From IMG/VR virus record IMGVR_UViG_3300044695_006401: DNA of 64,000 nt; one strand, written 5' to 3'. Each line of letters opens with the position of its first letter. Position 1 is the first letter of the stretch. Below, in pieces: positions 6,775 to 18,554 of the stretch. The stretch comes from a virus. Taxonomy: Duplodnaviria > Caudoviricetes. Made by a program: the position numbers and the translations under genes. The notes beneath the pieces are model-generated. The model was not told the DNA's origin. It saw nothing but the letters and a program-made list of their open reading frames with translations, and did no database searches.

Positions 6775-8181
6775 TTATTGGGTTTTTTGTTTATAACCAA
6801 TTAAATCTTTCATTTTTTGAACTTCTGATAAAACTTTTTTGTTTTCAACAGATTCAAGTTTCATTAGTATTTCACTTGCTTCATCTGCGTTTTCACCAGC
6901 AACATCATTGACCGGTTGAGAAGCTTTGTTGTAAGCCTTTTTCTTAAGTTTTGATAATAAATTATTTTTTCTTATGGTATTTCTTTCTTTGTTAACTCCT
7001 GTTTCAACTGCATTTGCCCAATCTGGATTATTACCAGTTCTTGATGATCCTTCGATGTTATCTGTCACCCATTCTTCATCAGGATTGATCCCATCATAAT
7101 CAATATTTTCTAAAGCCGCTGCCGTAAAGTTTTTGATATACTCATCAACTGATTTTGAAGGTATGTAAGCCTTTTTTGACATTTTTTCTATTTCTCCATT
7201 TCCTCTTGGAAAATCTTTTGGGTTCATTTCGTATGAACCTTTAGAACCTTTCTTCAAGTAATCTTTCATTTTTTTAACAACACTTTCAATGTAGTCTTCA
7301 TTTTCTTTTTCAGAAACCTTCAATGATTTTTTTAGTGTTGGGTCGACAGTTTTACTACCTTTTTTATTTTTTTCCTCTAAAACGATGTTTTCAATAATGT
7401 CAATTACTTCATTTTCTGTAAAGAAAATTCTTTCACCTGTAGACTCATTCATATAAAGTTCATAAACATCCTGTTCACTAACTGCTACTTTTCCAGACCA
7501 ATCGTCTTTTTTAGCTCTTTTAGCAAAATAAAGTTGACTCAAATCACTTCTTAATTTGTGAGGAACTTTCTTACCGTCTTTTTGAAATTCTTCTGACTTA
7601 TTTTTTAATTTTTTGATTTCTTTATTTAATTGTTCAATACTTTTGTTTGAGTGGTTTCCCGTTTTTTTAACATCAACATCATTAGACCATTTTTCCTCTA
7701 ATTGTGATTCGTTTTTTACCGGATAGGTTTTACCATCAACTGTAAATGTTTTTTTACCAGCTTCTCTCGCCTTTGCTAATTCACCTGAAAATTCATTTCC
7801 TTCTTCAACCTCATCTTCATCAATTTCTTTGAATCCAATTTCCATATCTGTATCGTACATATCTCTTTCTCTTTCTAAAGAAGTTCTAGTGTCCATATCA
7901 CTATCTCCTCTTAATATACTTTCAATGTCATCAATTGACATTTCTTTAGAGAATCTCTTTTTACCGAATCTTGGGTGTCCGTCATCCATACCACCTAACT
8001 CATCAAGTTGGGCTTCTTTCATATAACCGCACTCATTACATTCATTCTCAACCATTTGTCCTGTACCACATTGTTCGCACATTTCTTTGTTTTCAAATAT
8101 TCTTCTTTTAATATCTGACATTTTATCCGACATTTCTTCAGATAAAACTTTATTAACGATTTTCATAATTTCTTTGTTCAT
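6775..8181 (-). CDS. Modular acidic protein, putative virion/head-internal protein (468 aa)
   Basis: CxxC...CxxC (CEQC/CNEC) near the N-terminus, charged low-complexity modules, TATTTATT motif 4 nt upstream. Confidence 0.7.
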   Translation of the reverse strand: MNKEIMKIVNKVLSEEMSDKMSDIKRRIFENKEMCEQCGTGQMVENECNECGYMKEAQLDELGGMDDGHPRFGKKRFSKEMSIDDIESILRGDSDMDTRTSLERERDMYDTDMEIGFKEIDEDEVEEGNEFSGELAKAREAGKKTFTVDGKTYPVKNESQLEEKWSNDVDVKKTGNHSNKSIEQLNKEIKKLKNKSEEFQKDGKKVPHKLRSDLSQLYFAKRAKKDDWSGKVAVSEQDVYELYMNESTGERIFFTENEVIDIIENIVLEEKNKKGSKTVDPTLKKSLKVSEKENEDYIESVVKKMKDYLKKGSKGSYEMNPKDFPRGNGEIEKMSKKAYIPSKSVDEYIKNFTAAALENIDYDGINPDEEWVTDNIEGSSRTGNNPDWANAVETGVNKERNTIRKNNLLSKLKKKAYNKASQPVNDVAGENADEASEILMKLESVENKKVLSEVQKMKDLIGYKQKTQ

Positions 8182-8185
8182 ACCT

Positions 8186-8193
8186 AATAAATA
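8186..8193 (-). promoter_or_regulatory. TATTTATT motif, 4 nt before ATG 8181
   Basis: Recurrent motif; leaderless geometry. Confidence 0.5.
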
Positions 8194-8201
8194 TCTTTAA
8201 T

Positions 8202-8723
8202 TTATGAATTGTCACCCAACTTATTGAATAATAAGTATTTTATAGTTTCAACATCTAAACCTGATCTCAATGAAACATTTTCAATAGCCTCTTGGAGTTT
8301 AGTTTTCTTTTTTCTTCTTTTTTTTGGTTTTCTAATATCCAAGGCATTAATGTCTCCTTGGTTACAATAAGGGAAAGTTTTACATTTTTCTTTTACTGAC
8401 ACAAAAGATCCTCCAGGTATCTGAGCCTTATTCCATGAGGAACCCTGTCCTTTTACTGTATTACCCTTCATGTTTATGTCTTGAAAACTGTTCGCATCAT
8501 ATGGCCCGACAGAAGAACTCGATGTTACTTCGTTCGCTTCTATTTGTTTGATGTCTTTTTTTGTTTTATATTCAGATTTAGCAACATCGTCTTCTGACCA
8601 CATACTGAATGCGGGACTTGAGTAACCATATCCTCCACCAGTAGCCGTAACTTCTGTTGTTTCTTCTTCCTTTTTTTTCTTTAAGGCTTCAAGTATGTAT
8701 TTGTTTAAAATTTTCTTATCCAT
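8202..8723 (-). CDS. Hypothetical protein (173 aa)
   Basis: ORF track; TAATG stop-start coupling at 8723; CKTFPYC motif. Confidence 0.75.
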   Translation of the reverse strand: MDKKILNKYILEALKKKKEEETTEVTATGGGYGYSSPAFSMWSEDDVAKSEYKTKKDIKQIEANEVTSSSSVGPYDANSFQDINMKGNTVKGQGSSWNKAQIPGGSFVSVKEKCKTFPYCNQGDINALDIRKPKKRRKKKTKLQEAIENVSLRSGLDVETIKYLLFNKLGDNS

Positions 8724-8971
8724 TACTTAATGTTTTTAATTGTATTTTCCCAATTTGATCTCTTTGACCACAAAAAATGATAAAATTCAACAAAGGCTTT
8801 ACGAATATACTCATTAACATCTCCTCGTAATTTACCTGACTTCATGTCTGTTTTTATTCTTTCTATCATTCTATCTTCAAATTTTTTAATGGTATTAGCA
8901 TCCAAGAAACTTTTTATTTCTTTTCTAACGATGTTTTCAATTTCTTTTTTATCTGAAGATGATAATGGCAT
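8723..8971 (-). CDS. Hypothetical protein (82 aa)
   Basis: ORF track; TAATG couplings on both sides. Confidence 0.7.
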   Translation of the reverse strand: MPLSSSDKKEIENIVRKEIKSFLDANTIKKFEDRMIERIKTDMKSGKLRGDVNEYIRKAFVEFYHFLWSKRSNWENTIKNIK

Positions 8972-9384
8972 TATTTGAAAATTAAAAGATAAGTTAATGG
9001 TGCTATTATTGCCCCTGATATGATGTTGAAAATTGTGTTTTTTGTTTTCAATCTTTTGTTGTCATCAGCCAATCTTTGATTTTCTGTTTTATATATTTCA
9101 ACCTTTTCTTCAGTTTTAGAAATTATTTGAGTACTCAAAGAATCCTTTTCTACATATGTTTTAATTGTTTTATCCAACAAAACAATTTTATTATTCAATT
9201 CTTTTATTTCTTTTTGATTGAGTTTGTCAATTTCTTTCAATCTGTCATAATCGTTCAGATCTAATAAGATTTTTTGAGCAACAGAAAATGGGATACACAT
9301 TTCAGATGTATCCATAATTGGTTTTTGAGCACTTAATTTAAAACTCAACAAAACAAACCCTATAAGTGTTAAAATATTTTTCAT
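8971..9384 (-). CDS. Signal-peptide, coiled-coil, C-terminal-TM protein (spanin-like candidate)
   Basis: MKNILTLIGFVLLSFKLSA|Q signal peptide, central heptads, C-terminal hydrophobic IFNIISGAIIAPLTYLLIF. Confidence 0.55.
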   Translation of the reverse strand: MKNILTLIGFVLLSFKLSAQKPIMDTSEMCIPFSVAQKILLDLNDYDRLKEIDKLNQKEIKELNNKIVLLDKTIKTYVEKDSLSTQIISKTEEKVEIYKTENQRLADDNKRLKTKNTIFNIISGAIIAPLTYLLIFK

Positions 9385-9386
9385 AA

Positions 9387-9740
9387 TTAAAAATTATATC
9401 GTCCTCTCAACAAACTATCTATTTGTTTTTTGTCGGCACTTTTTATCTCTTCTTTCTTTTGAGTATAATAGTTGTTTACTTGGCTTTTCTCCATTTTTAT
9501 CTTACCAATTTTTTCATCTATCTTATCTATTTTACTTTGGTAAGCTTGAATAGAGTCATTAAGTTTAAGTTGTAGTTGTTTCATTTCATTTATATGTTTG
9601 TCCAACTGTTCTAACTTATATTTGTTTAATTCTGACATATCAGGTGCCGGTGTAAAAACTCTGATTAGTAAATAAATAAAAATAACACCTAGTATACCAA
9701 GTGTTATCATTTTCCAATTTTTAGTAAAAAAATCTTTCAT
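9387..9740 (-). CDS. N-terminal-TM coiled-coil protein (i-spanin-like candidate)
   Basis: TM ITLGILGVIFIYLLIRVF followed by a long coiled coil. Confidence 0.55.
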   Translation of the reverse strand: MKDFFTKNWKMITLGILGVIFIYLLIRVFTPAPDMSELNKYKLEQLDKHINEMKQLQLKLNDSIQAYQSKIDKIDEKIGKIKMEKSQVNNYYTQKKEEIKSADKKQIDSLLRGRYNF

Positions 9741-9742
9741 AA

Positions 9743-10294
9743 TTATTCTTCTTCTTTTTTAAATTGTGTTTTCTTTCTTGATGAAATTACTTTAGCCCAC
9801 TTTGATTTAAATTTTTCATGGTAGGAGGTCAACTTGTTAATCAAATCAACCAATTTGTCATCCAATTTGATCATTTCTCCGTTTATATATACCCCATTAT
9901 CCTCTCCGATTGAATAGAAGAACTCAATATCTGCATCTAAAATCTTACCGCTCCATTGAACGCTATTTGGGTAAACATTTAATATCCCAAAATCTGATAA
10001 GTCTGAAACATCATTTACAAACTCATCCATAGTTTCTTGAAAAGCAGCCTTTTCTTCCGTGGTCAACTGAAGTTCTTTTTTTTCTTTACCATGTAATGCA
10101 AGTAAACCTCCAGATATTCTATAAGTTTTTGATTTATCTTGTTTAATGTCATCACTTTCTGCACCGACTTCGTCTTGATAAACATCGTCTTCAATATTGT
10201 CTTCGATACTTTTAGCAATATTAGTACCTGTTGTTTGTTCTTGTAAAAGTCTAGATCTTTTTAACAAACTTTTTATTTCATCGTAACTATTCAT
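9743..10294 (-). CDS. Hypothetical acidic protein (183 aa), possible virion protein
   Basis: ORF track; N-terminal ...RLLQE|Q motif. Confidence 0.7.
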   Translation of the reverse strand: MNSYDEIKSLLKRSRLLQEQTTGTNIAKSIEDNIEDDVYQDEVGAESDDIKQDKSKTYRISGGLLALHGKEKKELQLTTEEKAAFQETMDEFVNDVSDLSDFGILNVYPNSVQWSGKILDADIEFFYSIGEDNGVYINGEMIKLDDKLVDLINKLTSYHEKFKSKWAKVISSRKKTQFKKEEE

Positions 10295-10889
10295 TTTTTA
10301 ATAATTCTTCTAATCGTTTAAAGTTAAATGAAGGATTTACATCCTTATATATAAAATCAAAATTACTTCTTGACACAACACCTTTGAAGTACTCAACATC
10401 ATCTTGTTTAACATTATTTCCCAAACAAGTTTTTGGTATGTTGAATTTCTCACATAACTCACTTATCAAATTTGCCAAATTTTCTAACTGAATTTCAGTG
10501 TATGGGTCCCAAAAAAAATGATCTCTCCACTTTTTTTCGTAAGCCTTTTTTTTATAAATATCCCCAATCCAATTAACATACGAATCTTGTAAAGGATTTT
10601 TTTTAAGCCAATTATAATTCTCTAATGTTATTATTATACCATATCTATTCACATCTTCATCATCCATGTATTTTGAATAACTTTGGGGTTCCATGATTTG
10701 AAAGACATCCCCATCTTTTGTGATAATATAATGTGGTAAATATGGGTTATTTTTATTATACCGATATCTTAAAGAATTAATATAATTCTTATAACCTCTT
10801 TTAGTGTCAGTAATAATAATTTGTTTTTTATTGTTACTAGTACCAATCGGTTTAAATTCGTTGGATGCTGACAGATTTTGGACTTCCAC
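10287..10889 (-). CDS. N-acetylmuramoyl-L-alanine amidase-like (Amidase_2 fold), Zn ligands apparently degenerate
   Basis: KQIIITDT, PHYIITKDGDVFQ, IIITLEN, YTEIQLENLANLISELCEKFNIP and DVNPSF follow the Amidase_2 layout; the expected His positions read D and N/R. Confidence 0.65.
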   Translation of the reverse strand: MEVQNLSASNEFKPIGTSNNKKQIIITDTKRGYKNYINSLRYRYNKNNPYLPHYIITKDGDVFQIMEPQSYSKYMDDEDVNRYGIIITLENYNWLKKNPLQDSYVNWIGDIYKKKAYEKKWRDHFFWDPYTEIQLENLANLISELCEKFNIPKTCLGNNVKQDDVEYFKGVVSRSNFDFIYKDVNPSFNFKRLEELLKNE

Positions 10890-11979
10890 CTCGATTTATG
10901 TAAGACAATCGTTTATTAGTAGGTGCAACATTTTCAGGTTTCGTTTCTTCAATTATTGGTTGTTCCACTATATTATTTTCTTCAAACATTTTGAAGTATT
11001 TTTCCTCGTCAAATAAATTTTCATCGTCTTCGAACATTTTTTCAAATGATCTTACTTCTTGTATTTCTATCGTTGGTTCTGGTGTGGGGGTAGGAGTATT
11101 TTTTGGAAAAATGGGTAAGACTTGGGGGGTAACTTGAGGGGTGACTTGGGGGGTGACTTGGGGGGTCTCCTCTTCTTCTTTTTTACTAGTTTTAAACGCT
11201 TGGTTCGTAGCAATGACCAATGTTATCGCCAATGGATCAAAAACGAATATTAATATAAGAATGAATATGTTTGCAGTTTTCTTAACACCCCAACCAGTAA
11301 GCTCACTTATATATTTAATTGTACCAAGTTCATTACCTGATATCTCAGCAGATTCTTTATCTAATATCTCAATATCCAATTTTGTAATACTATCGTTTAA
11401 CGCATCAATTTTCAAAGACATTTTATCACGATTTTCAATTGCCATCGTCAATTGTGTTTCAAATGACTTTCTATTTGCGTTATTTGCTCTTGTAATCAAC
11501 TGACCTGTTTGTCTATCAACACTTTGAGTTGTAGTATTACTTGAAAGAGCTTCTCTTAATTTTGATATGTCTTTATCTAATGTTTGTTTTTCTTTTTGGT
11601 ATTCACCTTTGATTTCTTCAAACCTTTCTTTTTTTACTTCGATGTTTTTTATTTCCTTTTGACCTATCTCAAGTTTTGCAATATTAGAAGAAAATCCGGT
11701 ACTTAATAAACCATAGATACCAAGAGATGTAATAAGTGATAATGTTACCAATGCTATTGTCATATAAATTTTCAATACTCCATATGTTTCTTTCCACTTG
11801 TCGTGTAAATATGTTGCAATTGCAAGTTTAGATATTTCTAAAAATCCACCCATAACTATAACAGGTAAAGCAACCCCCACAAATACAACGGATAGACCAA
11901 CAACACTATAATATGCTGCAGTTCCTGACAAACCAAGAGCACAAAAAAGTAAAAACCACGGTAATAATTTATTTTTCAT
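10852..11979 (-). CDS. Multi-TM membrane protein with large coiled coil and Pro/Thr-rich tail (start revised to 11979, MKNKLLPW)
   Basis: Three N-terminal hydrophobic segments, coiled coil, TM IFILILIFVFDPLAITLVIA. The track start at 12066 would run through the terminator and promoter motif. Confidence 0.75.
   Translation of the reverse strand: MKNKLLPWFLLFCALGLSGTAAYYSVVGLSVVFVGVALPVIVMGGFLEISKLAIATYLHDKWKETYGVLKIYMTIALVTLSLITSLGIYGLLSTGFSSNIAKLEIGQKEIKNIEVKKERFEEIKGEYQKEKQTLDKDISKLREALSSNTTTQSVDRQTGQLITRANNANRKSFETQLTMAIENRDKMSLKIDALNDSITKLDIEILDKESAEISGNELGTIKYISELTGWGVKKTANIFILILIFVFDPLAITLVIATNQAFKTSKKEEEETPQVTPQVTPQVTPQVLPIFPKNTPTPTPEPTIEIQEVRSFEKMFEDDENLFDEEKYFKMFEENNIVEQPIIEETKPENVAPTNKRLSYINRGGSPKSVSIQRI
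11120..11167. repeat. 4 x 12-bp G-rich tandem repeat (ACTTGGGGGGTG consensus) encoding TPQV x4
   Basis: Units start at 11120, 11132, 11144 and 11156. Confidence 0.9.
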
Positions 11980-11995
11980 AATAATAACTATAATA

Positions 11996-12003
11996 GATAA
12001 ATA
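11996..12003 (-). promoter_or_regulatory. TATTTATC motif 16 nt upstream of ATG 11979
   Basis: TATTTAT core directly downstream of the sigma-gene terminator. Confidence 0.45.
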
Positions 12004-12011
12004 TAAAAGAT

Positions 12012-12040
12012 AAAGAAAAACCCCCTTGTTAGAAGGGGGT
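12012..12040 (-). terminator. Rho-independent terminator after the sigma factor gene
   Basis: Stem ACCCCCTT (12020-12027) / AAGGGGGT (12033-12040), then TTTTCTTT on the minus strand. Confidence 0.8.
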
Positions 12041-12052
12041 CGTGTTATAGTA

Positions 12053-12868
12053 TCATAAATATTCAAACAAATCCGAACACTCGTTACGAAGTTTACGAAG
12101 TGCTTTTTCTTTAATTTGTCTTACTCGTTCTTTAGTTAGACTAAAATCAGAACCAATGTCTTCTAATGTTCTAGGTGTACCTGTGATACCGTAGTAGTCT
12201 TCTATAATAATTCTTTCTCTTTCATCTAAAACACCCATAATTTCCATCATTTTTTGTTTTAAGATGTCTTTAGTGTTGAAAACTTCGTCGGGTGATTCTA
12301 CATTATCGTTTTTGATAATGTCAATTAGAGTATCACCATCTTCATTGATATGCATGTCTAAATCAACCATGCGAGGTAAAGAAGCAAACTTACTAGACAA
12401 CTCTTTGTTTGTTTTTTCGTTTTCTCGTTTTTCTTTTTGCATGTCTTGTACGACATTTACCGGTAGTCGGATGGTACGAGAGTTATCATTTAATGATTGT
12501 AGGATTGATTGTTTGATCCACCAAACCGCATAAGAAATAAAACGATTTTTCTTTGACCAATCGAAGTTTTTTATTGCCTTCATTAACCCATAATTCCCTT
12601 CCGCTATCAAATCTGATAGGTCAACACCTTGGTTTTGGTATTGTTTAGCAACCGTAATCACAAATCGAAGGTTCCCTTCTAACATTTCTTTTTGAATAGC
12701 ATTTTTTTCTCTATCCGTACAGTCTGTTGATGAGATTCTCTCAGCCAATGCTCGTTCCCTTTCGGGAGTCATGACTTTTAGTTTTCGAATGTCTTTAAGG
12801 TAAATTTGAATTTCATCCTGATTAAGGGGGTTAGTTGATTTTGTTTCCTCCATTTTCTCTCTTTCCAT
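12053..12868 (-). CDS. Sigma-70 family RNA polymerase sigma factor (Bacteroidota RpoD/SigA-like)
   Basis: Region 1.2 YLKDIRK; region 2 NLRFVITVAKQYQNQG...DLIAEGNYGL...FISYAVWWIKQSI; region 4 TLEDIG...TKERVRQIKEKALRKLR. Confidence 0.95.
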   Translation of the reverse strand: MEREKMEETKSTNPLNQDEIQIYLKDIRKLKVMTPERERALAERISSTDCTDREKNAIQKEMLEGNLRFVITVAKQYQNQGVDLSDLIAEGNYGLMKAIKNFDWSKKNRFISYAVWWIKQSILQSLNDNSRTIRLPVNVVQDMQKEKRENEKTNKELSSKFASLPRMVDLDMHINEDGDTLIDIIKNDNVESPDEVFNTKDILKQKMMEIMGVLDERERIIIEDYYGITGTPRTLEDIGSDFSLTKERVRQIKEKALRKLRNECSDLFEYL

Positions 12869-13436
12869 AATTGTCTAATATTTGTTTCTCTTCTTTTGTT
12901 AATGACTCTATTCCTTTCTCTGTTATCTTTTCTAAAATTTGGTCCACTGTTGGTTTAGGTGATTCAGGTCTTTTAAACTTCATCGGAAACTCAAAGTTTT
13001 CATCCGACAAAGGTAAAATAAATTCCATGATATTACCTAATTTTTTCTCTTTTTCTTCATTTAATTTTTCTACATCTACTTCTTTGTTCTTGTTTTCTTT
13101 CTTAACTCCGTCAATATTTAAAAAATCTTTCTTCAATTTTCTGTCCATCTTGATATCTACATTTTCTGTCGCTTCCATCAAAAAATACTGTTCTACTTGA
13201 CCCTCTAAACACATGTCAATATAGTCTTTCAACTCAGCAAATGTTTCTTTGGTTCTAAAGTGTAAAACCATTCCAAACTCACCGTAGTTGAATTTTAAAA
13301 ACTCACTAGATACGATAGTAACTAATTGATACGAAATTTCATCAATAAAGTTTTCCATTTCCGAAAAATCGCCGAAAATAAACAACATATATCTTTTATC
13401 TTGTGACTTCATTTCTTCTTTCTTAATTCTTCCCAT
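12831..13436 (-). CDS. Hypothetical protein with DUF6576-like C-terminal helical motif (201 aa)
   Basis: C-terminal VDQILEKITEKGIESLTKEEKQIL. Confidence 0.65.
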   Translation of the reverse strand: MGRIKKEEMKSQDKRYMLFIFGDFSEMENFIDEISYQLVTIVSSEFLKFNYGEFGMVLHFRTKETFAELKDYIDMCLEGQVEQYFLMEATENVDIKMDRKLKKDFLNIDGVKKENKNKEVDVEKLNEEKEKKLGNIMEFILPLSDENFEFPMKFKRPESPKPTVDQILEKITEKGIESLTKEEKQILDNYGKRENGGNKIN

Positions 13437-13459
13437 AAATATTTCTTAAATGTATTTTA

Positions 13460-13467
13460 CAAATATA
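13460..13467 (-). promoter_or_regulatory. Bacteroidota-type -7 element TATATTTG upstream of 12831..13436 and the sigma gene
   Basis: Exact TAnnTTTG; no recognisable -33 element. Confidence 0.45.
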
Positions 13468-13483
13468 CTATTATTTTTAGTAT

Positions 13484-15889
13484 CTATACTAATTTTGAAA
13501 TATTATTTTCTTTACGTATTTTCACAACGCAATCAGCCCATTGAGAGACGAGGGGCGAGTGAGTTATGACGAAAATCTTGTCAAAATATTCTTTTATTTT
13601 GGTGAAGAACTCAGCAACCATCTCTAAGTTGTCATTACTAATTTTACCGAATATCTCGTCAAAAACAATTACATTTGGTTTAGGTAAACTACATATCTTA
13701 CTCAATACTGATCTTAAAGCAAGTGCAGCAACACTACGCTCATAACCCGAACCTGATACCATTAGTTTTTCAATTCCTGTTCCATTATCAATCATCACAA
13801 ACTCGACTTCGTTTTTGTCTGAAATTCTAATTTCAAGTTTGAAGTATGAACTATCTTCCATCAATCGTTGAAGTTCTGAGTTGATGAGTGGCATCATGGT
13901 TTTCATTATGATTTTAGAAATTCCATTCTTACCAAAAAGTTCTAAGTATATCTTATAGATTTTTTCTTTTTCCTCTTCTTCTTGGATTTTAACAATAGTT
14001 TTTTTGTTGTTTTCAATCTTTTCTTCTAAAGACTTGATTGTGAACTCATTATTAGATATAAGAGTATTGATTTTGTTTTTTTGATTATCTAATTCATCTA
14101 ATCTCAAATCAGCCTTAATCAACATTGAATCAATCTTTTGGTTTTCTTGGATTTTATCTTGGATTTCCTCCCACCTTTTGATTTTATCTTTCAAAGAAGT
14201 AATTTTTAAATCGCAACTTTCAATACTAACCTCGTACTTTTCTTTAATAAGTTTGTTTTTTTCATACTCATCAAACTCTTTTTTCAACTGAACAAAACCT
14301 TCTTCCGTGCGGGATAAAACCGTCATAGCAACCTCATTTGTCTGTTTCTGCATGATATATCCATCAAGTTCAGCAATCTTTGCATTCGTGATCACAGCGT
14401 TCATTAATTCAATACCACAGTGCTCACATTTAATTCCACCTTCAACAGATGACTTCAACTTATTGATTGACGCAATTTCGGTATCAATCTTAACTATATC
14501 TTTGTAAAGTTCATTAATTTCTTCTTTTACTTTATCGTGTGTATCCTCATAATAAAACTGAGATGGTTCAACAACTTTAAGTTCAATGATTTTAGAAACT
14601 AGACCCTTTTTTTCAAAATCAATTGTGTTGATTTCTTCCTGTGTCTTTGTTGGATTTAATAAACTAATCTCGTGGTCAATGTTTGTGTGTTTTTTCTTTA
14701 ACATGTCATCACGATAAGTTTTACCTTTCAGAATCGCATCTTCTACATTTAAAAGTTCCTTCTTACTTTCTACAATCTGTTCTAAATTATTTTTGATTGA
14801 TCCTTCATGTGTTTCGATATCATCTTTTAATTGTTGTGAAGAATAAATGTTTGACATCTTGGATTTTGAAAATTCAGAGTAGATTTCTTTTGCTATTTCC
14901 TCTTTTGTTTTCAAAAACTCTAATCCCATAAATCTCGATAAAACCTGACCTCTCGCTGTTGGTTTTGCCTCCAACAACTCTTCAAGGTTTGATGCGGTTG
15001 TAAGAATGGTCATTAAGAAGTCCTCTTTCGTACCAATTGAAGATTTAATGAACGCTTCGGTTTCTCTTCTTTGTTCACCTGTAAAGTTTTGTAAACTACC
15101 ATCAGACAACTTTTTAAAGAAGTCCAACTCAGTTTTAACATTCCATTCACCTTTTTTAGATAACTTTCTTTCAATTGTTCTTACTATGATATAATCTTCA
15201 CCATCGATTTGCACTTCACCCTTTACATGTACCTTGTTCTTATCACTAAAACGATTGAATATTTCTTCAGCCTTTGTTGTCTTTGTTGTTTCATTAAAGA
15301 ACAAGAACATCAATAGATCAACTGAAAGAACCGTTTTTCCACCGAAGTTTGGCGGGTCTGATTCTACAACAATAATTCCATTGAGTTTCTCAAAATCCAA
15401 TCTCTGATTTTCACCATAAGACAGGAAGTTTGAGAACTCGATGTTTTTAATGTACCACTTTTTAAACTGAGCAGTTTCCTCTTGTTTTTCAGCGATCTTG
15501 TTTTCAACCATTCGGTTAATAGATAGTACTGATTCTAAGTGGTCGTTATAACCTTTTGTCTCCAAGTGTTGTTTAATTAACCCCAACTGGTAATTAGTGT
15601 CAGTGATATTCATCGACACATCAATACTTTGGTTCTCTTCAATGTTGGTGACTTTTGCCTTTGTTAGAACATTTACATTAGTTGTATTATACTTTTTTGA
15701 AAAGTAGTGTTTAACGGACTTTATTTTGTCTTGTGTAAAGTTTTCAGGTAGGTCTTCCCAAACTACTTGAATTGTTGGGTTAATAAACTTTGAAATATCA
15801 AGGTCTTTTATCATTATTTGGTAATTAAAGGTTTTAGTTTCCTTGAACAGATCCAACTGGTTCTGTGGTTGTATTTGTATTTTCATCAA
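13484..15889 (-). CDS. sbcC: SbcC/Rad50 (T4 gp46-like) SMC ATPase with N-terminal extension (likely start 15814)
   Basis: IEFSNFLSYG, Walker A NFGGKT, coiled coil with zinc hook CEHC, signature variant SGYE, Walker B IVFDEIFG, H-loop VITH. Confidence 0.9.
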   Translation of the reverse strand: MMKIQIQPQNQLDLFKETKTFNYQIMIKDLDISKFINPTIQVVWEDLPENFTQDKIKSVKHYFSKKYNTTNVNVLTKAKVTNIEENQSIDVSMNITDTNYQLGLIKQHLETKGYNDHLESVLSINRMVENKIAEKQEETAQFKKWYIKNIEFSNFLSYGENQRLDFEKLNGIIVVESDPPNFGGKTVLSVDLLMFLFFNETTKTTKAEEIFNRFSDKNKVHVKGEVQIDGEDYIIVRTIERKLSKKGEWNVKTELDFFKKLSDGSLQNFTGEQRRETEAFIKSSIGTKEDFLMTILTTASNLEELLEAKPTARGQVLSRFMGLEFLKTKEEIAKEIYSEFSKSKMSNIYSSQQLKDDIETHEGSIKNNLEQIVESKKELLNVEDAILKGKTYRDDMLKKKHTNIDHEISLLNPTKTQEEINTIDFEKKGLVSKIIELKVVEPSQFYYEDTHDKVKEEINELYKDIVKIDTEIASINKLKSSVEGGIKCEHCGIELMNAVITNAKIAELDGYIMQKQTNEVAMTVLSRTEEGFVQLKKEFDEYEKNKLIKEKYEVSIESCDLKITSLKDKIKRWEEIQDKIQENQKIDSMLIKADLRLDELDNQKNKINTLISNNEFTIKSLEEKIENNKKTIVKIQEEEEKEKIYKIYLELFGKNGISKIIMKTMMPLINSELQRLMEDSSYFKLEIRISDKNEVEFVMIDNGTGIEKLMVSGSGYERSVAALALRSVLSKICSLPKPNVIVFDEIFGKISNDNLEMVAEFFTKIKEYFDKIFVITHSPLVSQWADCVVKIRKENNISKLV

Positions 15890-16076
15890 CTATTGTTGCA
15901 TCTTCAACTAAATTATTTTCTGTGTCTGCTGACATTTTTGCAAACTCTTCTCTTAATTTTTCCATTTGTTCTTGCATCGCCGTGTTCCATTCTTTTGAAA
16001 TTTTTCTTTCTGTGTGTTGTAATCTAAGATTTCTTTTAAGAACTTTTGCTCTGTGTGCTTTTGCCGCTTTTCCCAT
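15834..16076 (-). CDS. Hypothetical protein (80 aa), basic N-terminus and acidic C-terminus
   Basis: ORF track; operon context. Confidence 0.6.
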   Translation of the reverse strand: MGKAAKAHRAKVLKRNLRLQHTERKISKEWNTAMQEQMEKLREEFAKMSADTENNLVEDATIVDENTNTTTEPVGSVQGN

Positions 16077-16101
16077 TTTTTAAACTATTAATTATTATTT
16101 A

Positions 16102-16440
16102 TTACTTTCTGTTTTCCTCAAACCACTCAATGATTGCATTTATCCCCCATACAAAACCCGCAGATAACATACCATCATAAAATACAGATAAAAATTCATT
16201 TAGTCCAATGAATTCTTTGTTTGGTGAAAAATATGCCAATGATAGAAAAAATCCCACCCATGTACCTGTACATAACATACAAGAAATTAAACCAGATAAA
16301 AAATTACCTATAAAATTAAATGGAGCATATTCATTTTTACCCCACCTGTGAATCGCATTTCTCCAATTTGCGAAAATTGATCCATAAACTAAAATTGTTG
16401 TCATTCCATAGGCGACAACTGCCCAAATTAATAAATTCAT
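16102..16440 (-). CDS. DUF1360-like membrane protein
   Basis: Three hydrophobic segments with CMLCTGTWVG (CxxCxxxW) motif. Confidence 0.65.
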   Translation of the reverse strand: MNLLIWAVVAYGMTTILVYGSIFANWRNAIHRWGKNEYAPFNFIGNFLSGLISCMLCTGTWVGFFLSLAYFSPNKEFIGLNEFLSVFYDGMLSAGFVWGINAIIEWFEENRK

Positions 16441-16441
16441 A

Positions 16442-17128
16442 CTACCTATATAAGTTATCGTTTAGATTAGAACCACCATGAAATCGAGCGTTCATTTGAT
16501 TGTCGATTTTAGGTTGATTTAATATTTTATTTTCTAATTCTTTATTTTTTATTTTTAAATCCCTGATCTCAACATTCAAGTTTGTAATTGTCTGTTGTAA
16601 CATTTGAAGTTTGTTGTTGTCGGTATTTTGGAAATTATTTTCCATTTCTTGTGTTTTAGTGGAAAATTCTTGTCTAATTGTATCGATTTCGGTAGTTTTA
16701 GTGGAAATTTCTTGCTCCAACTGTTGTATTTTTAACAACAGTTCATTTACTTGAGTGTCGTCAGTTATATAGATTTCTTTTTTAATAACTCTATCTATTG
16801 GGACTTCTTTGATAACCTCTTGAATTACAACTTTCTCTACCGGTATTTCTTTAATCACTTCAACAGGTACTTCCACCCGTTTTTCAACAATTACCTCCTT
16901 TATTACCTGTTTTTCTTCGATCCCACCCGTTTTTAAGTGTTTTTCACCTTCATTAAGTGTTTTTCCCAAAAAACCATACTTCTCAATATCGAAACCTTGT
17001 TTGAAACACTTGTAAACAAAGTCATCAACATTTTCAATATTGTTTGCAGAACAATATTCAGACACCGTCTGCACAATTTTGTCGTTAAGCATTTTGGAGT
17101 TTTTCTGTTCCATTTTCAATATCTTCAA
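16442..17128 (-). CDS. Coiled-coil protein with E-V-I-K/E-V-P repeats (228 aa; likely start 17113)
   Basis: VIKEVIVEKRVEVPVEVIKEIPVEKVVIQEVIKEVP followed by heptads. Confidence 0.7.
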   Translation of the reverse strand: MKILKMEQKNSKMLNDKIVQTVSEYCSANNIENVDDFVYKCFKQGFDIEKYGFLGKTLNEGEKHLKTGGIEEKQVIKEVIVEKRVEVPVEVIKEIPVEKVVIQEVIKEVPIDRVIKKEIYITDDTQVNELLLKIQQLEQEISTKTTEIDTIRQEFSTKTQEMENNFQNTDNNKLQMLQQTITNLNVEIRDLKIKNKELENKILNQPKIDNQMNARFHGGSNLNDNLYR

Positions 17129-17864
17129 AAGATTTTATTGAGAACTTCAAAAAAGGTTTTGGGTTGAATAAATCAACATAGGAGTATTCTTTTGTTTCAA
17201 CATCATAAATTCCATACCCGTGTCTTTGGATACTTTCTCCTATGTTTTGTTGAATCGGACTTCCAATCATATACCCTTTACCTGTTTTGAATTTGAACTC
17301 TTGTCGTTTGTGAATATCTCCACATAACACTGCTTCAAGACCATCGAACTTTTCAACATCATAAGCCTCTTCACCAAAGTCAAATCCAAGGTCTGTTTTC
17401 ATACCTTGTATTGGTCCGTGAAACAATCCAATTCGTTTACCTTTTGATTCAGTAATATCAGGTGGAATGTTTCCTTGATATTGTGAATAAACACACCAAC
17501 TAATGTTCTCGTCTTCATAAACACCTCTGTCTTTGTAATAAACAATATTCTCACTATTAAGTGAATTAATAATTGGTGTTAGAGCATCCAATCTTTCTGT
17601 GTTGTTTACCAAAAAGTCGTGGTTACCAGGAATCAAGATTGTCTTTGCGATCTTAGAACATTCGGTTAAAACCCAAGCAACAATCTCAATAAGTTCAGGT
17701 GTCATTTGATTTTTAGAATGAACTAAATCACCTGTGAATACTATTCTATCCGGCTTAATTTGTTCGAATCGCGACAACATGTCGCGAATAATGTCGCGAT
17801 ACAAGTCGTGATCTTTAAATAAACGGATGTGTAAATCAGAAAAGTGTGTAAGTTTCTTAATCAT
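17085..17864 (-). CDS. sbcD: SbcD/Mre11 (T4 gp47-like) metallophosphoesterase nuclease, short C-terminus
   Basis: Five phosphoesterase motifs: SDLH, GDLVH, GNHD, FHG, GDIH. Confidence 0.9.
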   Translation of the reverse strand: MIKKLTHFSDLHIRLFKDHDLYRDIIRDMLSRFEQIKPDRIVFTGDLVHSKNQMTPELIEIVAWVLTECSKIAKTILIPGNHDFLVNNTERLDALTPIINSLNSENIVYYKDRGVYEDENISWCVYSQYQGNIPPDITESKGKRIGLFHGPIQGMKTDLGFDFGEEAYDVEKFDGLEAVLCGDIHKRQEFKFKTGKGYMIGSPIQQNIGESIQRHGYGIYDVETKEYSYVDLFNPKPFLKFSIKSFEDIENGTEKLQNA

Positions 17865-18105
17865 TTAACTGTGTTTTGTCTTCGCAATATACTTCGTATG
17901 GTGGTCTATATGGGTCACCAGAACTACCAGGAAAAGGATTAATTGGCATCGGAACTCGGTATGGTTCGGCAATACCGATCTTTGGTTCATCTTTAACCTC
18001 TTTCATCTTCTCTTGGATAGTCTCGATATCAATTTGTTTGAAATCTGTCCATCTTTTATTGGTCATAAATCCTTCCAACCAAATATAAAATTCTTTGTGT
18101 GTCAT
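17857..18105 (-). CDS. Hypothetical protein (82 aa)
   Basis: ORF track; ATGA-type overlaps. Confidence 0.65.
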   Translation of the reverse strand: MTHKEFYIWLEGFMTNKRWTDFKQIDIETIQEKMKEVKDEPKIGIAEPYRVPMPINPFPGSSGDPYRPPYEVYCEDKTQLND

Positions 18106-18248
18106 ACTAATTCTCTATTATAAAGGTTTGCTAATATAATTCTTGCGAATTTAAAATCTTTAGCTCTATTTAATTTTAGACCATATGCTAATCCAATACT
18201 TTTCAAGTATGGGTACGCTTCACTTATAGTCATTTTACCTATTTCCAT
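18102..18248 (-). CDS. Small hypothetical protein (start revised to ATG 18248, 48 aa)
   Basis: ATG lies 1 nt after the upstream TAA; the track's GTG start overlaps the previous gene by 44 nt. Confidence 0.5.
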   Translation of the reverse strand: MEIGKMTISEAYPYLKSIGLAYGLKLNRAKDFKFARIILANLYNRELV

Positions 18249-18249
18249 T

Positions 18250-18465
18250 TTAATCGAATAATTTGAAATCCTCGTTAACATGTCCACATTCATTGCACAT
18301 GTATGTAGGAAATGGTACTATAGTATCTTCAGAACTACCTGTTAATAGTTTAGGAACTTTTTTAAGCATTGTTACTTCTTTAAAAAAGACTCCCTCACAC
18401 TTTCCACATTGGATTGTTTGTTGTTGTCTCAAGTCAATTCTTGGTTTTATAATGTCTTCGCTCAT
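18250..18465 (-). CDS. Zinc-ribbon protein (71 aa)
   Basis: CGKC...CNECGH. Confidence 0.75.
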   Translation of the reverse strand: MSEDIIKPRIDLRQQQTIQCGKCEGVFFKEVTMLKKVPKLLTGSSEDTIVPFPTYMCNECGHVNEDFKLFD

Positions 18466-18554
18466 TTTATGATATAATTTATTTTTATTTTAAATGGTAA
18501 TTCTTGGTCCCAACTAGTTGTTGTATACCAAATTGGTGTTATAGTAGATTCCAT
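18462..18554 (-). CDS. Micro-ORF (30 aa, MESTITPIWYTTTSWDQELPFKIKINYIIK); missing from the track
   Basis: Fills the 18466-18567 gap; its TGA overlaps the next ATG (ATGA). Confidence 0.45.
   Translation of the reverse strand: MESTITPIWYTTTSWDQELPFKIKINYIIK

Follow-up and report, generated by a model that had tools for sequence, protein, structure and literature searches.

The Mre11-Rad50 (SbcCD) nuclease is universal, and its working cycle depends on tethering of the nuclease dimer to the ATPase. The locus described here lies in a stretch of 64,000 nucleotides of phage DNA (Caudoviricetes; IMG/VR record IMGVR_UViG_3300044695_006401), hereafter the window, which comes from an uncultured lake jumbo phage with related contigs of up to 326 kb. 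All genes between 12 and 20 kb of the window are on the minus strand, and among them are a short sbcD (Mre11) gene and a long sbcC (Rad50) gene, separated by 1.27 kb. A sequence-only reading of the locus had proposed that the complex was re-split, the capping segment, linker and Rad50-binding helix-loop-helix of Mre11 being carried by Rad50. Where does the boundary between the two subunits lie, and how did it arise? The window very probably encodes a two-chain Mre11-Rad50 nuclease with a shifted subunit boundary, derived from a single-chain ancestor.

Relocation of the Mre11 C-terminus to Rad50

SbcD, with 259 amino acids (aa), is as short as had been noted and terminates ...NPKPFLKFSIKSFEDIENGTEKLQNA, soon after its last phosphoesterase motif. 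It possesses the calcineurin-like phosphoesterase motifs with their metal ligands (DxH, GD, GNHD, H and GDxH), its catalytic columns (D10, H12, D46, N81, H82, H149, D183 and H185) are invariant in 30 relatives, and its end strand and tail are also conserved in relatives. The capping domain on this chain is incomplete, SbcD stopping after the third capping strand, and the helix-loop-helix that binds Rad50 is not on the nuclease chain; two helices (residues 73-110) are found on the Rad50 chain.

The SbcC frame is open from a TTG at 15889 (open reading frame (ORF) 13484-15889), and the first Rad50 strand (WYIKNIEF) is at residue ~146 of the frame started there. Relatives of SbcC, both close and distant, start at an ATG equivalent to 15814, which in the window is separated by a 19-base spacer from the stop of the upstream 80-aa ORF; the gene was therefore taken as 13484-15814 (776 aa), this ATG being most likely the true start. 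The N-terminal extension, previously estimated at 115-140 residues, is present, but its length with the ATG start is ~118 aa. Positions 15485-15775 read TIQVVWED...NVNVLTKA / KVTNIEENQSIDVSMNITD / TNYQLGLIKQHLE...LSINRMVENK.

The break point can be placed exactly by comparison with single-chain Mre11-Rad50 proteins. SbcD matches residues 14-251 of a 1066-aa protein of Microcystis phage Mel-JY01 (WWT39521; 36% identity, 3e-39), and SbcC matches residues 325-1061 of the same protein (25% identity, 6e-43). Other single-chain forms are those of huge phage LR756501 (1202 aa) and Tenacibaculum phage pT24 (gp019, 1310 aa) and the proteins P0237 and P0266, and at least 3477 metagenome protein clusters combine Metallophos with AAA_23/SMC_N (E below 1e-5). 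Both ORFs of the window match phrog_35725, which consists of very long 'metallo-phosphoesterases', SbcD at positions 6-280 and SbcC at 1000-1314. In the window itself nuclease and ATPase are not in one polypeptide. When aligned together, three split pairs, four fused proteins and the homing-endonuclease-interrupted relative LR756508 are colinear, and the break is confined to one loop, with ~13 lineage-specific residues on each side. When a hidden Markov model (HMM) built from 30 fused proteins only was run over the window, its positions 2-250 matched SbcD (E 5e-73) and positions 253-398 matched SbcC residues 27-175 (E 8e-25), with no further match and no second Mre11 anywhere in the 64 kb.

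The N-terminal part of the fused-protein profile (1-357) matches T. maritima Mre11 (3qg5_C, 1-376) end to end (E 2.2e-24), a match that extends over the capping strands and over the Rad50-binding C-terminal helices. An AlphaFold model of P0237 residues 1-400 (confidence score pLDDT 87.6) has capping strands at 219-225, 231-237, 242-250 and 262-269, a helix at 278-292 and a strand at 296-301, followed by a low-confidence linker, helices at 323-336 and 340-356 and the first Rad50 strand; its top Foldseek matches are Mre11/SbcD only (3tho_B, 8.6e-17; the nuclease-plus-capping structure of S. aureus SbcD, 7dog, TM 0.69). The break in the window maps between strands 242-250 and 262-269 of this model. 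The SbcC model (pLDDT 84) begins with a strand (14-21), a helix (28-41), a second strand (46-53), a disordered stretch (55-67) and two helices (73-87 and 90-110), and continues as a Rad50 head and a coiled coil (long helices 299-455 and 476-652) with a CxxC hook; its top Foldseek matches are Rad50/SbcC. Its capping segment aligns to strand 262-269, helix 278-292 and strand 296-301 of P0237, and its helix-loop-helix corresponds in the alignment to the part of the fused profile matching the C-terminal helices of T. maritima Mre11. By sequence, SbcC has no Pfam match at all and only weak SbcC/Rad50 matches in a phmmer search of the PDB (best E 0.008). The proposal that the capping segment, linker and helix-loop-helix of Mre11 are now on Rad50 is thus upheld by colinearity, the fused-only HMM and the Mre11 structure matches, as well as by the complex model described below.

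Distribution of the break point

A library-wide HMMER search with SbcC residues 2-160 returned 154 representatives. Nearly all carry the piece at the N-terminus of proteins of ~775-800 aa, down to 26% identity, and three carry it internally in fused proteins; none of the 154 is a canonical ~400-aa Mre11 with the relocated piece. The survey of relatives that the earlier reading had called for found the same break point in all 80 IMG/VR loci with both genes on the piece examined, and in two more distant contigs. In these loci (SbcD 49-91% identical) SbcD is 258-272 aa and SbcC about 775-810 aa long, and SbcC carries the relocated segment wherever it is on the piece examined. The two genes are adjacent in none, the gap ranging from 0.67 to 7 kb. 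The stretch is also contained in 17 lake-water metagenome runs, with 86-95% of its sampled words present. The layout is neither chance nor an assembly artefact, given its recurrence in the 80 loci, the two distant contigs and the 17 runs.

Predicted assembly of the two chains

The pair was modelled as a complex (SbcD with SbcC residues 1-127, an alignment of 30 rows for each) alongside three controls. The interface score ipSAE was 0.79, compared with 0.01 for the best of the three controls; this mark is reached by 58 of 80 solved complexes and by 2 of 110 mismatched pairs. The runs share at least 68% of contacts, with a partner pLDDT of at least 62. SbcC residues 9-21 contact SbcD 233-246 in the model, and the contacts of lowest error pair SbcD 236-243 (PFLKFSI) with SbcC 13-19 (TIQVVWE), a strand-to-strand interface exactly at the break, between two strands that are contiguous in the fused relatives. 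On this modelling, the two chains probably reassemble by completing the capping-domain sheet in trans.

Independent support for reassembly comes from selection on the relocated piece. Compared with the closest relative, its nonsynonymous and synonymous divergences (dN and dS) are 0.023 and 0.75 (dN/dS 0.03), similar to the Rad50 N-lobe, and W19, Y42 and D72 are invariant among sequences down to 24% identity. The piece is under strong purifying selection.

In the proposed history, the ancestor would be a Mre11-Rad50 protein of one chain, as is common among large phages. Its gene was presumably divided in the loop that joins capping-domain strands three and four, where a small gene cassette now fills the cut. 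The first chain would then consist of the phosphoesterase domain and three capping strands, and the second of the last two capping strands with their helix, the flexible linker, the helix-loop-helix and a complete Rad50 with zinc hook. With the sheet restored, the helix-loop-helix may dock in cis at the base of the coiled coil that belongs to the same chain, and the assembled enzyme may process DNA ends during phage recombination and replication as an M2R2 nuclease of the ordinary kind.

ATPase motifs of the Rad50 chain

The replacement of SGGE by SGYE in the ATP-binding cassette (ABC) signature, which the sequence-only reading had pointed out, is real, and it accompanies other ATPase-motif changes that are likewise shared by the whole clade (Table 1). 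All members of the split clade have SG[YF]E, the fused family has SGME (or SGA[EQ]), and SbcC of Bacillus phage Bcp1 has SGGE. Walker A is PxNxGGK[TS] throughout the split forms and xNxxGK[ST] in fused relatives, with the lysine kept. The Q-loop position is A, S or G in all split-clade sequences and Gln in most fused relatives. The zinc-hook residues C463 and C466 are invariant. This combination of retained and altered residues suggests that SbcC is an active but derived ATPase.

Table 1. Positions of the split Mre11-Rad50 genes, their domains and motifs, and the genes between them (window coordinates)
Feature	Position	Strand	Remarks
SbcD, N-terminal piece of Mre11	17085..17864	-	259 aa; Pfam Metallophos 4e-13, phrog_100 8e-24
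SbcD phosphoesterase domain	17229-17864	-	
SbcD first three capping-domain strands	17127-17228	-	
SbcD 13-residue tail	17088-17126	-	
Intervening gene 1	16442..17128	-	about 216-228 aa; start overlaps SbcD end
Intervening gene 2, small membrane protein	16102..16440	-	112 aa; weak DUF1360 (6e-4), phrog_781
Intervening gene 3, basic N-terminus	15834..16076	-	80 aa; homologue in 48/80 loci
Rad50/SbcC-like protein with Mre11 C-terminal module	13484..15814	-	776 aa from ATG; phrog_77 2e-42
Second half of Mre11 capping domain, strand-helix-strand	15656..15775	-	residues 14-53 of the 776-aa protein
Flexible, partly acidic linker	15599..15655	-	residues 54-72; variable in alignment; pLDDT <50 for 55-67
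Helix-loop-helix, counterpart of Mre11 Rad50-binding domain	15485..15598	-	residues 73-110
Walker A, PPNFGGKT	15332..15355	-	lysine kept, first glycine absent, two-residue insertion
Q-loop position, TILTTASN	14987..15010	-	no glutamine
CxxC zinc hook (CEHC) at coiled-coil apex	14417..14428	-	both Cys invariant in 33 sequences
ABC signature variant, SGSGYE	13739..13756	-	non-canonical compared with SGGE/Q
Walker B, VIVFDE	13655-13672	-	D719, E720 invariant
H-loop, VITHSP	13553-13570	-	H752 nearly invariant

Points against the proposed origin and assembly

Several results weigh against a re-split enzyme that reassembles. A profile of the relocated piece alone (A3) gave only chance-level matches among PDB sequences, none of them to Mre11, and comparison of A3 by hhalign with the T4 gp47 sequence alone yielded no match (probability 0.15). 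Direct profile comparison of the extension with Mre11 and gp47 C-termini thus shows no similarity, and the link to Mre11 goes by way of fused intermediates, through which T. maritima Mre11 and the fold matches are reached. The gp47 C-terminus does have a strand-helix-strand, an acidic linker and two helices, as judged by eye only, which is not a test. An extension unrelated to Mre11, with a superficial likeness, would be consistent with these negative results; it is nevertheless highly improbable, since the extension is contiguous with SbcD in the profile made from fused proteins only and runs colinear with fused proteins that, over the equivalent region, match solved Mre11 structures in both sequence and fold.

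Binding of the chains and activity of the enzyme, moreover, are read from models and sequence only. The complex score measures likeness, not binding, because it may partly reflect solved Mre11 structures on which the model was trained, as tends to happen with halves of a split domain, and the ATPase cycle may differ from the usual one, because the Q-loop Gln is missing, Walker A is altered and the signature is SG[YF]E. Both points would suit a pair that does not reassemble, SbcD being a free-standing nuclease with a capping stump and the Mre11 piece on Rad50 being either a relic or an element that has taken on another role, perhaps no more than stabilising the base of the coiled coil. A relic would hardly be kept at such a low dN/dS with residues invariant over so wide a range of identity, nor does a mere stump fit the conservation of the SbcD end strand and tail, and the predicted interface coincides exactly with two strands that follow one another in the fused chains; separate careers for the two chains are accordingly judged unlikely.

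The remaining point concerns direction. In a quick IQ-TREE analysis of concatenated Mre11 and Rad50, with T4 gp47 and gp46 as the outgroup, the split clade is one group (support 100), sister to the fused pT24, P0266 and LR756501 proteins (99), among other fused groups. Passage from fused to split is likely, not proven, because the tree is a quick one with a very long T4 outgroup branch and unresolved deep forks. These same features would accommodate an ancestral split form, or one that descended directly from a canonical Mre11 gene and a canonical Rad50 gene with no fused protein in between, the single chains being later fusions. Canonical Mre11, however, has the capping domain and the helix-loop-helix on the nuclease chain, and since it holds those domains itself, the move of the capping piece to Rad50 requires either a fused intermediate or an improbably precise translocation. 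In addition, of at least four fused groups the tree sets one next to the split clade, which is itself a single group; the fused P0266 and LR756501 lack the Q-loop Gln as the split clade does; and the fused family is far more diverse, with the thousands of clusters counted above. An ancestral split form, or an origin without a fused stage, is thus very unlikely, and one fission of a fused ancestor is the simplest reading and a likely one; the term 're-split' agrees with the best reading of the tree.

Genes in the gap

The gap between SbcD and SbcC contains stop codons and, as the sequence-only reading had it, three genes, all on the same strand. Rejoining of the halves after transcription or translation, by a group I/II intron, a split intein or translational bypass, has precedent in that fractured phage genes with split inteins exist (PMC2677866), and the fused relative P0320 has a LAGLIDADG domain. 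However, an Rfam scan of 13000-18500 found no intron or ribozyme family, the ~13 extra residues on each side of the break are too few for intein halves, the gap is filled by three conserved protein genes, and no RNA-library contig joins the genes at the break (weak evidence, as only contigs were available). In one 'RNA?' run there is a skip of 1622 bases; one of its sides is 30 bases long with low likeness, and the skip falls elsewhere than at the break. Rejoining is consequently extremely improbable.

The product of intervening gene 1 has a conserved N-terminal domain of 45 aa (YCxxNxI...GFxIEKYG), to which its conservation is limited, followed by variable EVIKEVP-type repeats and a coiled coil. 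A homologue directly follows SbcD in all 80 IMG/VR loci and also, in shorter form, in the distant contigs L005 and L010. It has no credible Pfam or PHROG family, and an Atlas look-up of the N-terminal domain gave nothing above chance. The 112-aa membrane protein has a homologue in 77 of the 80 loci and is absent from L005 and L010. Neither the 112-aa gene nor the 80-aa gene has a homologue adjoining the fused genes of L001, L003, L008, L009 or L091, and none of the three ORFs belongs to a nuclease, homing endonuclease or intein family in Pfam or PHROG. Thus, of the earlier description of three unrelated genes between the halves, the number stands, but the genes are not arbitrary insertions; they form a conserved cassette. 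The product of gene 1 may act together with the nuclease, or gene 1 may be what was first inserted at the break.

It is also conceivable, although rather doubtful, that the break is a selected design and not a neutral scar, a joint in the capping domain making nuclease docking regulated, with gene 1 encoding a third subunit or regulator and the ATPase motifs being co-adapted. If so, the joint would lie beside the DNA-binding and active-site cleft, and docking on the Rad50 chain could be a regulated step.

In two lake metatranscriptome runs there are contigs with sequence identical to stretches of SbcC (13785-13964, 14011-14164, 14939-15180 and 15497-15752, the last being part of the relocated Mre11 piece), of the 80-aa gene and of SbcD (17694-17776), and one RNA-library contig covers 15947-16109, in the region of the 80-aa gene, exactly, which is weak evidence. 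These matches give a weak hint of natural expression only, because they are to contigs and carry-over of DNA is possible. The frequency of promoter-like and terminator-like sites does not exceed that in shuffled sequence.

Comparison with known systems

The pair in the window has all of the elements of canonical Mre11-Rad50/SbcCD (T. maritima, 3qg5 and 3tho; E. coli, 6s6v; T4 gp47-gp46): phosphoesterase motifs, capping domain, linker, helix-loop-helix, ABC head, coiled coil and CxxC hook. The boundary between the chains, in contrast, is inside the capping domain, whereas canonical Mre11 ends after the helix-loop-helix, so that the non-covalent contact in the window, where about the last third of Mre11 is made as the front end of SbcC, would be strand complementation instead of binding of a helix-loop-helix to the coiled coil. 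Walker A, the Q-loop and the signature also deviate from canonical Rad50. Small genes between the subunit genes are not unusual in themselves, since T4 has genes 46.1 and 46.2 between gene 47 (Mre11) and gene 46 (Rad50) (L094, 1982-2432); it is the shifted boundary that is unusual.

The fused phage proteins (Mel-JY01; pT24 gp019, annotated 'metallo-phosphoesterase'; LR756501; phrog_35725) are whole-length homologues with the same domain order, and they likewise have an SGxE-type signature variant and a primase nearby. They differ in being one polypeptide of ~1040-1310 aa, where the window has two polypeptides and a three-gene cassette in the cut. Literature searches found no paper on the fused phage Mre11-Rad50/SbcCD family or on a capping-domain split.

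A close published parallel of the same gene kind is an 'SbcD-like' gene in the Lake Gatun metagenome interrupted by the gene for a Vsr-like homing endonuclease, where the broken ends carry 25 and 9 extra residues (Dassa et al. 2009, Nucleic Acids Res 37:2560; PMC2677866). The principle is the same in the window, that of a phage repair gene in pieces without inteins, but the Lake Gatun break comes after phosphoesterase motif V and holds an endonuclease gene, while the break in the window is ~60 residues further, in the capping domain, has no recognisable endonuclease and is fixed in the whole clade. As cited in passages of PMC2677866 and PMC3045599, nrdA of the T4-like phage Aeh1 is split by mobE, and gp43 of Aeromonas phage 25 is in pieces; these passages likewise concern an essential enzyme whose gene has received foreign DNA and whose two polypeptides come together again without a covalent link, although the enzymes are others and the inserted homing endonuclease gene is still present, unlike in the window.

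The break after motif V also occurs in relatives of the window (LR756508, L077 and L084). In L077 (IMG/VR 3300025872_000070, 8001-14681), L084 and LR756508 (L002, 4172-8397), a gene of 305-306 aa encoding a zinc finger and a Vsr-like endonuclease cuts Mre11 after motif V, and this break has extra residues in keeping with those of the Lake Gatun locus (PMC2677866). L077 has both this break and the one in the capping domain, and its Mre11 is therefore in three pieces: 214 aa, a middle piece of 75 aa, and the rest as part of SbcC. The gap in L077 additionally contains a cysteine-synthase-like gene. Another mobile element targeting the Mre11-Rad50 family is found in the fused P0320 (1337 aa), which contains a LAGLIDADG_3 domain, probably an intein. 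In Bacillus phage Bcp1 (L092, 1248-2334), SbcD is annotated as a 42-aa 'exonuclease II' and a 274-aa 'recombination exonuclease', 133 bases apart, and may be another interrupted Mre11 gene.

With the capping-domain break, the natural versions of this one enzyme number three: a canonical pair of chains, a fused single chain, and a pair divided within a folded domain. The last suggests that the capping domain tolerates assembly from two polypeptides and that the Rad50-binding helices can act in cis, and it provides natural single-chain and re-split constructs for structural comparison as well as a probable case, seen across a whole clade, of genes that were fused and then divided again at another place. 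For annotation of the abundant lake and marine jumbo phages, the rule follows that a 'short SbcD' and a 'long SbcC' are halves of one unit and not the products of a truncated gene.

Just downstream of SbcC in the window is a gene for a 201-aa protein (12831-13436) with a DUF6576 motif at its end (1e-10). It has homologues in 55 of the 80 related loci, and L010 encodes a 133-aa DUF6576 protein at the same position, just after SbcC.

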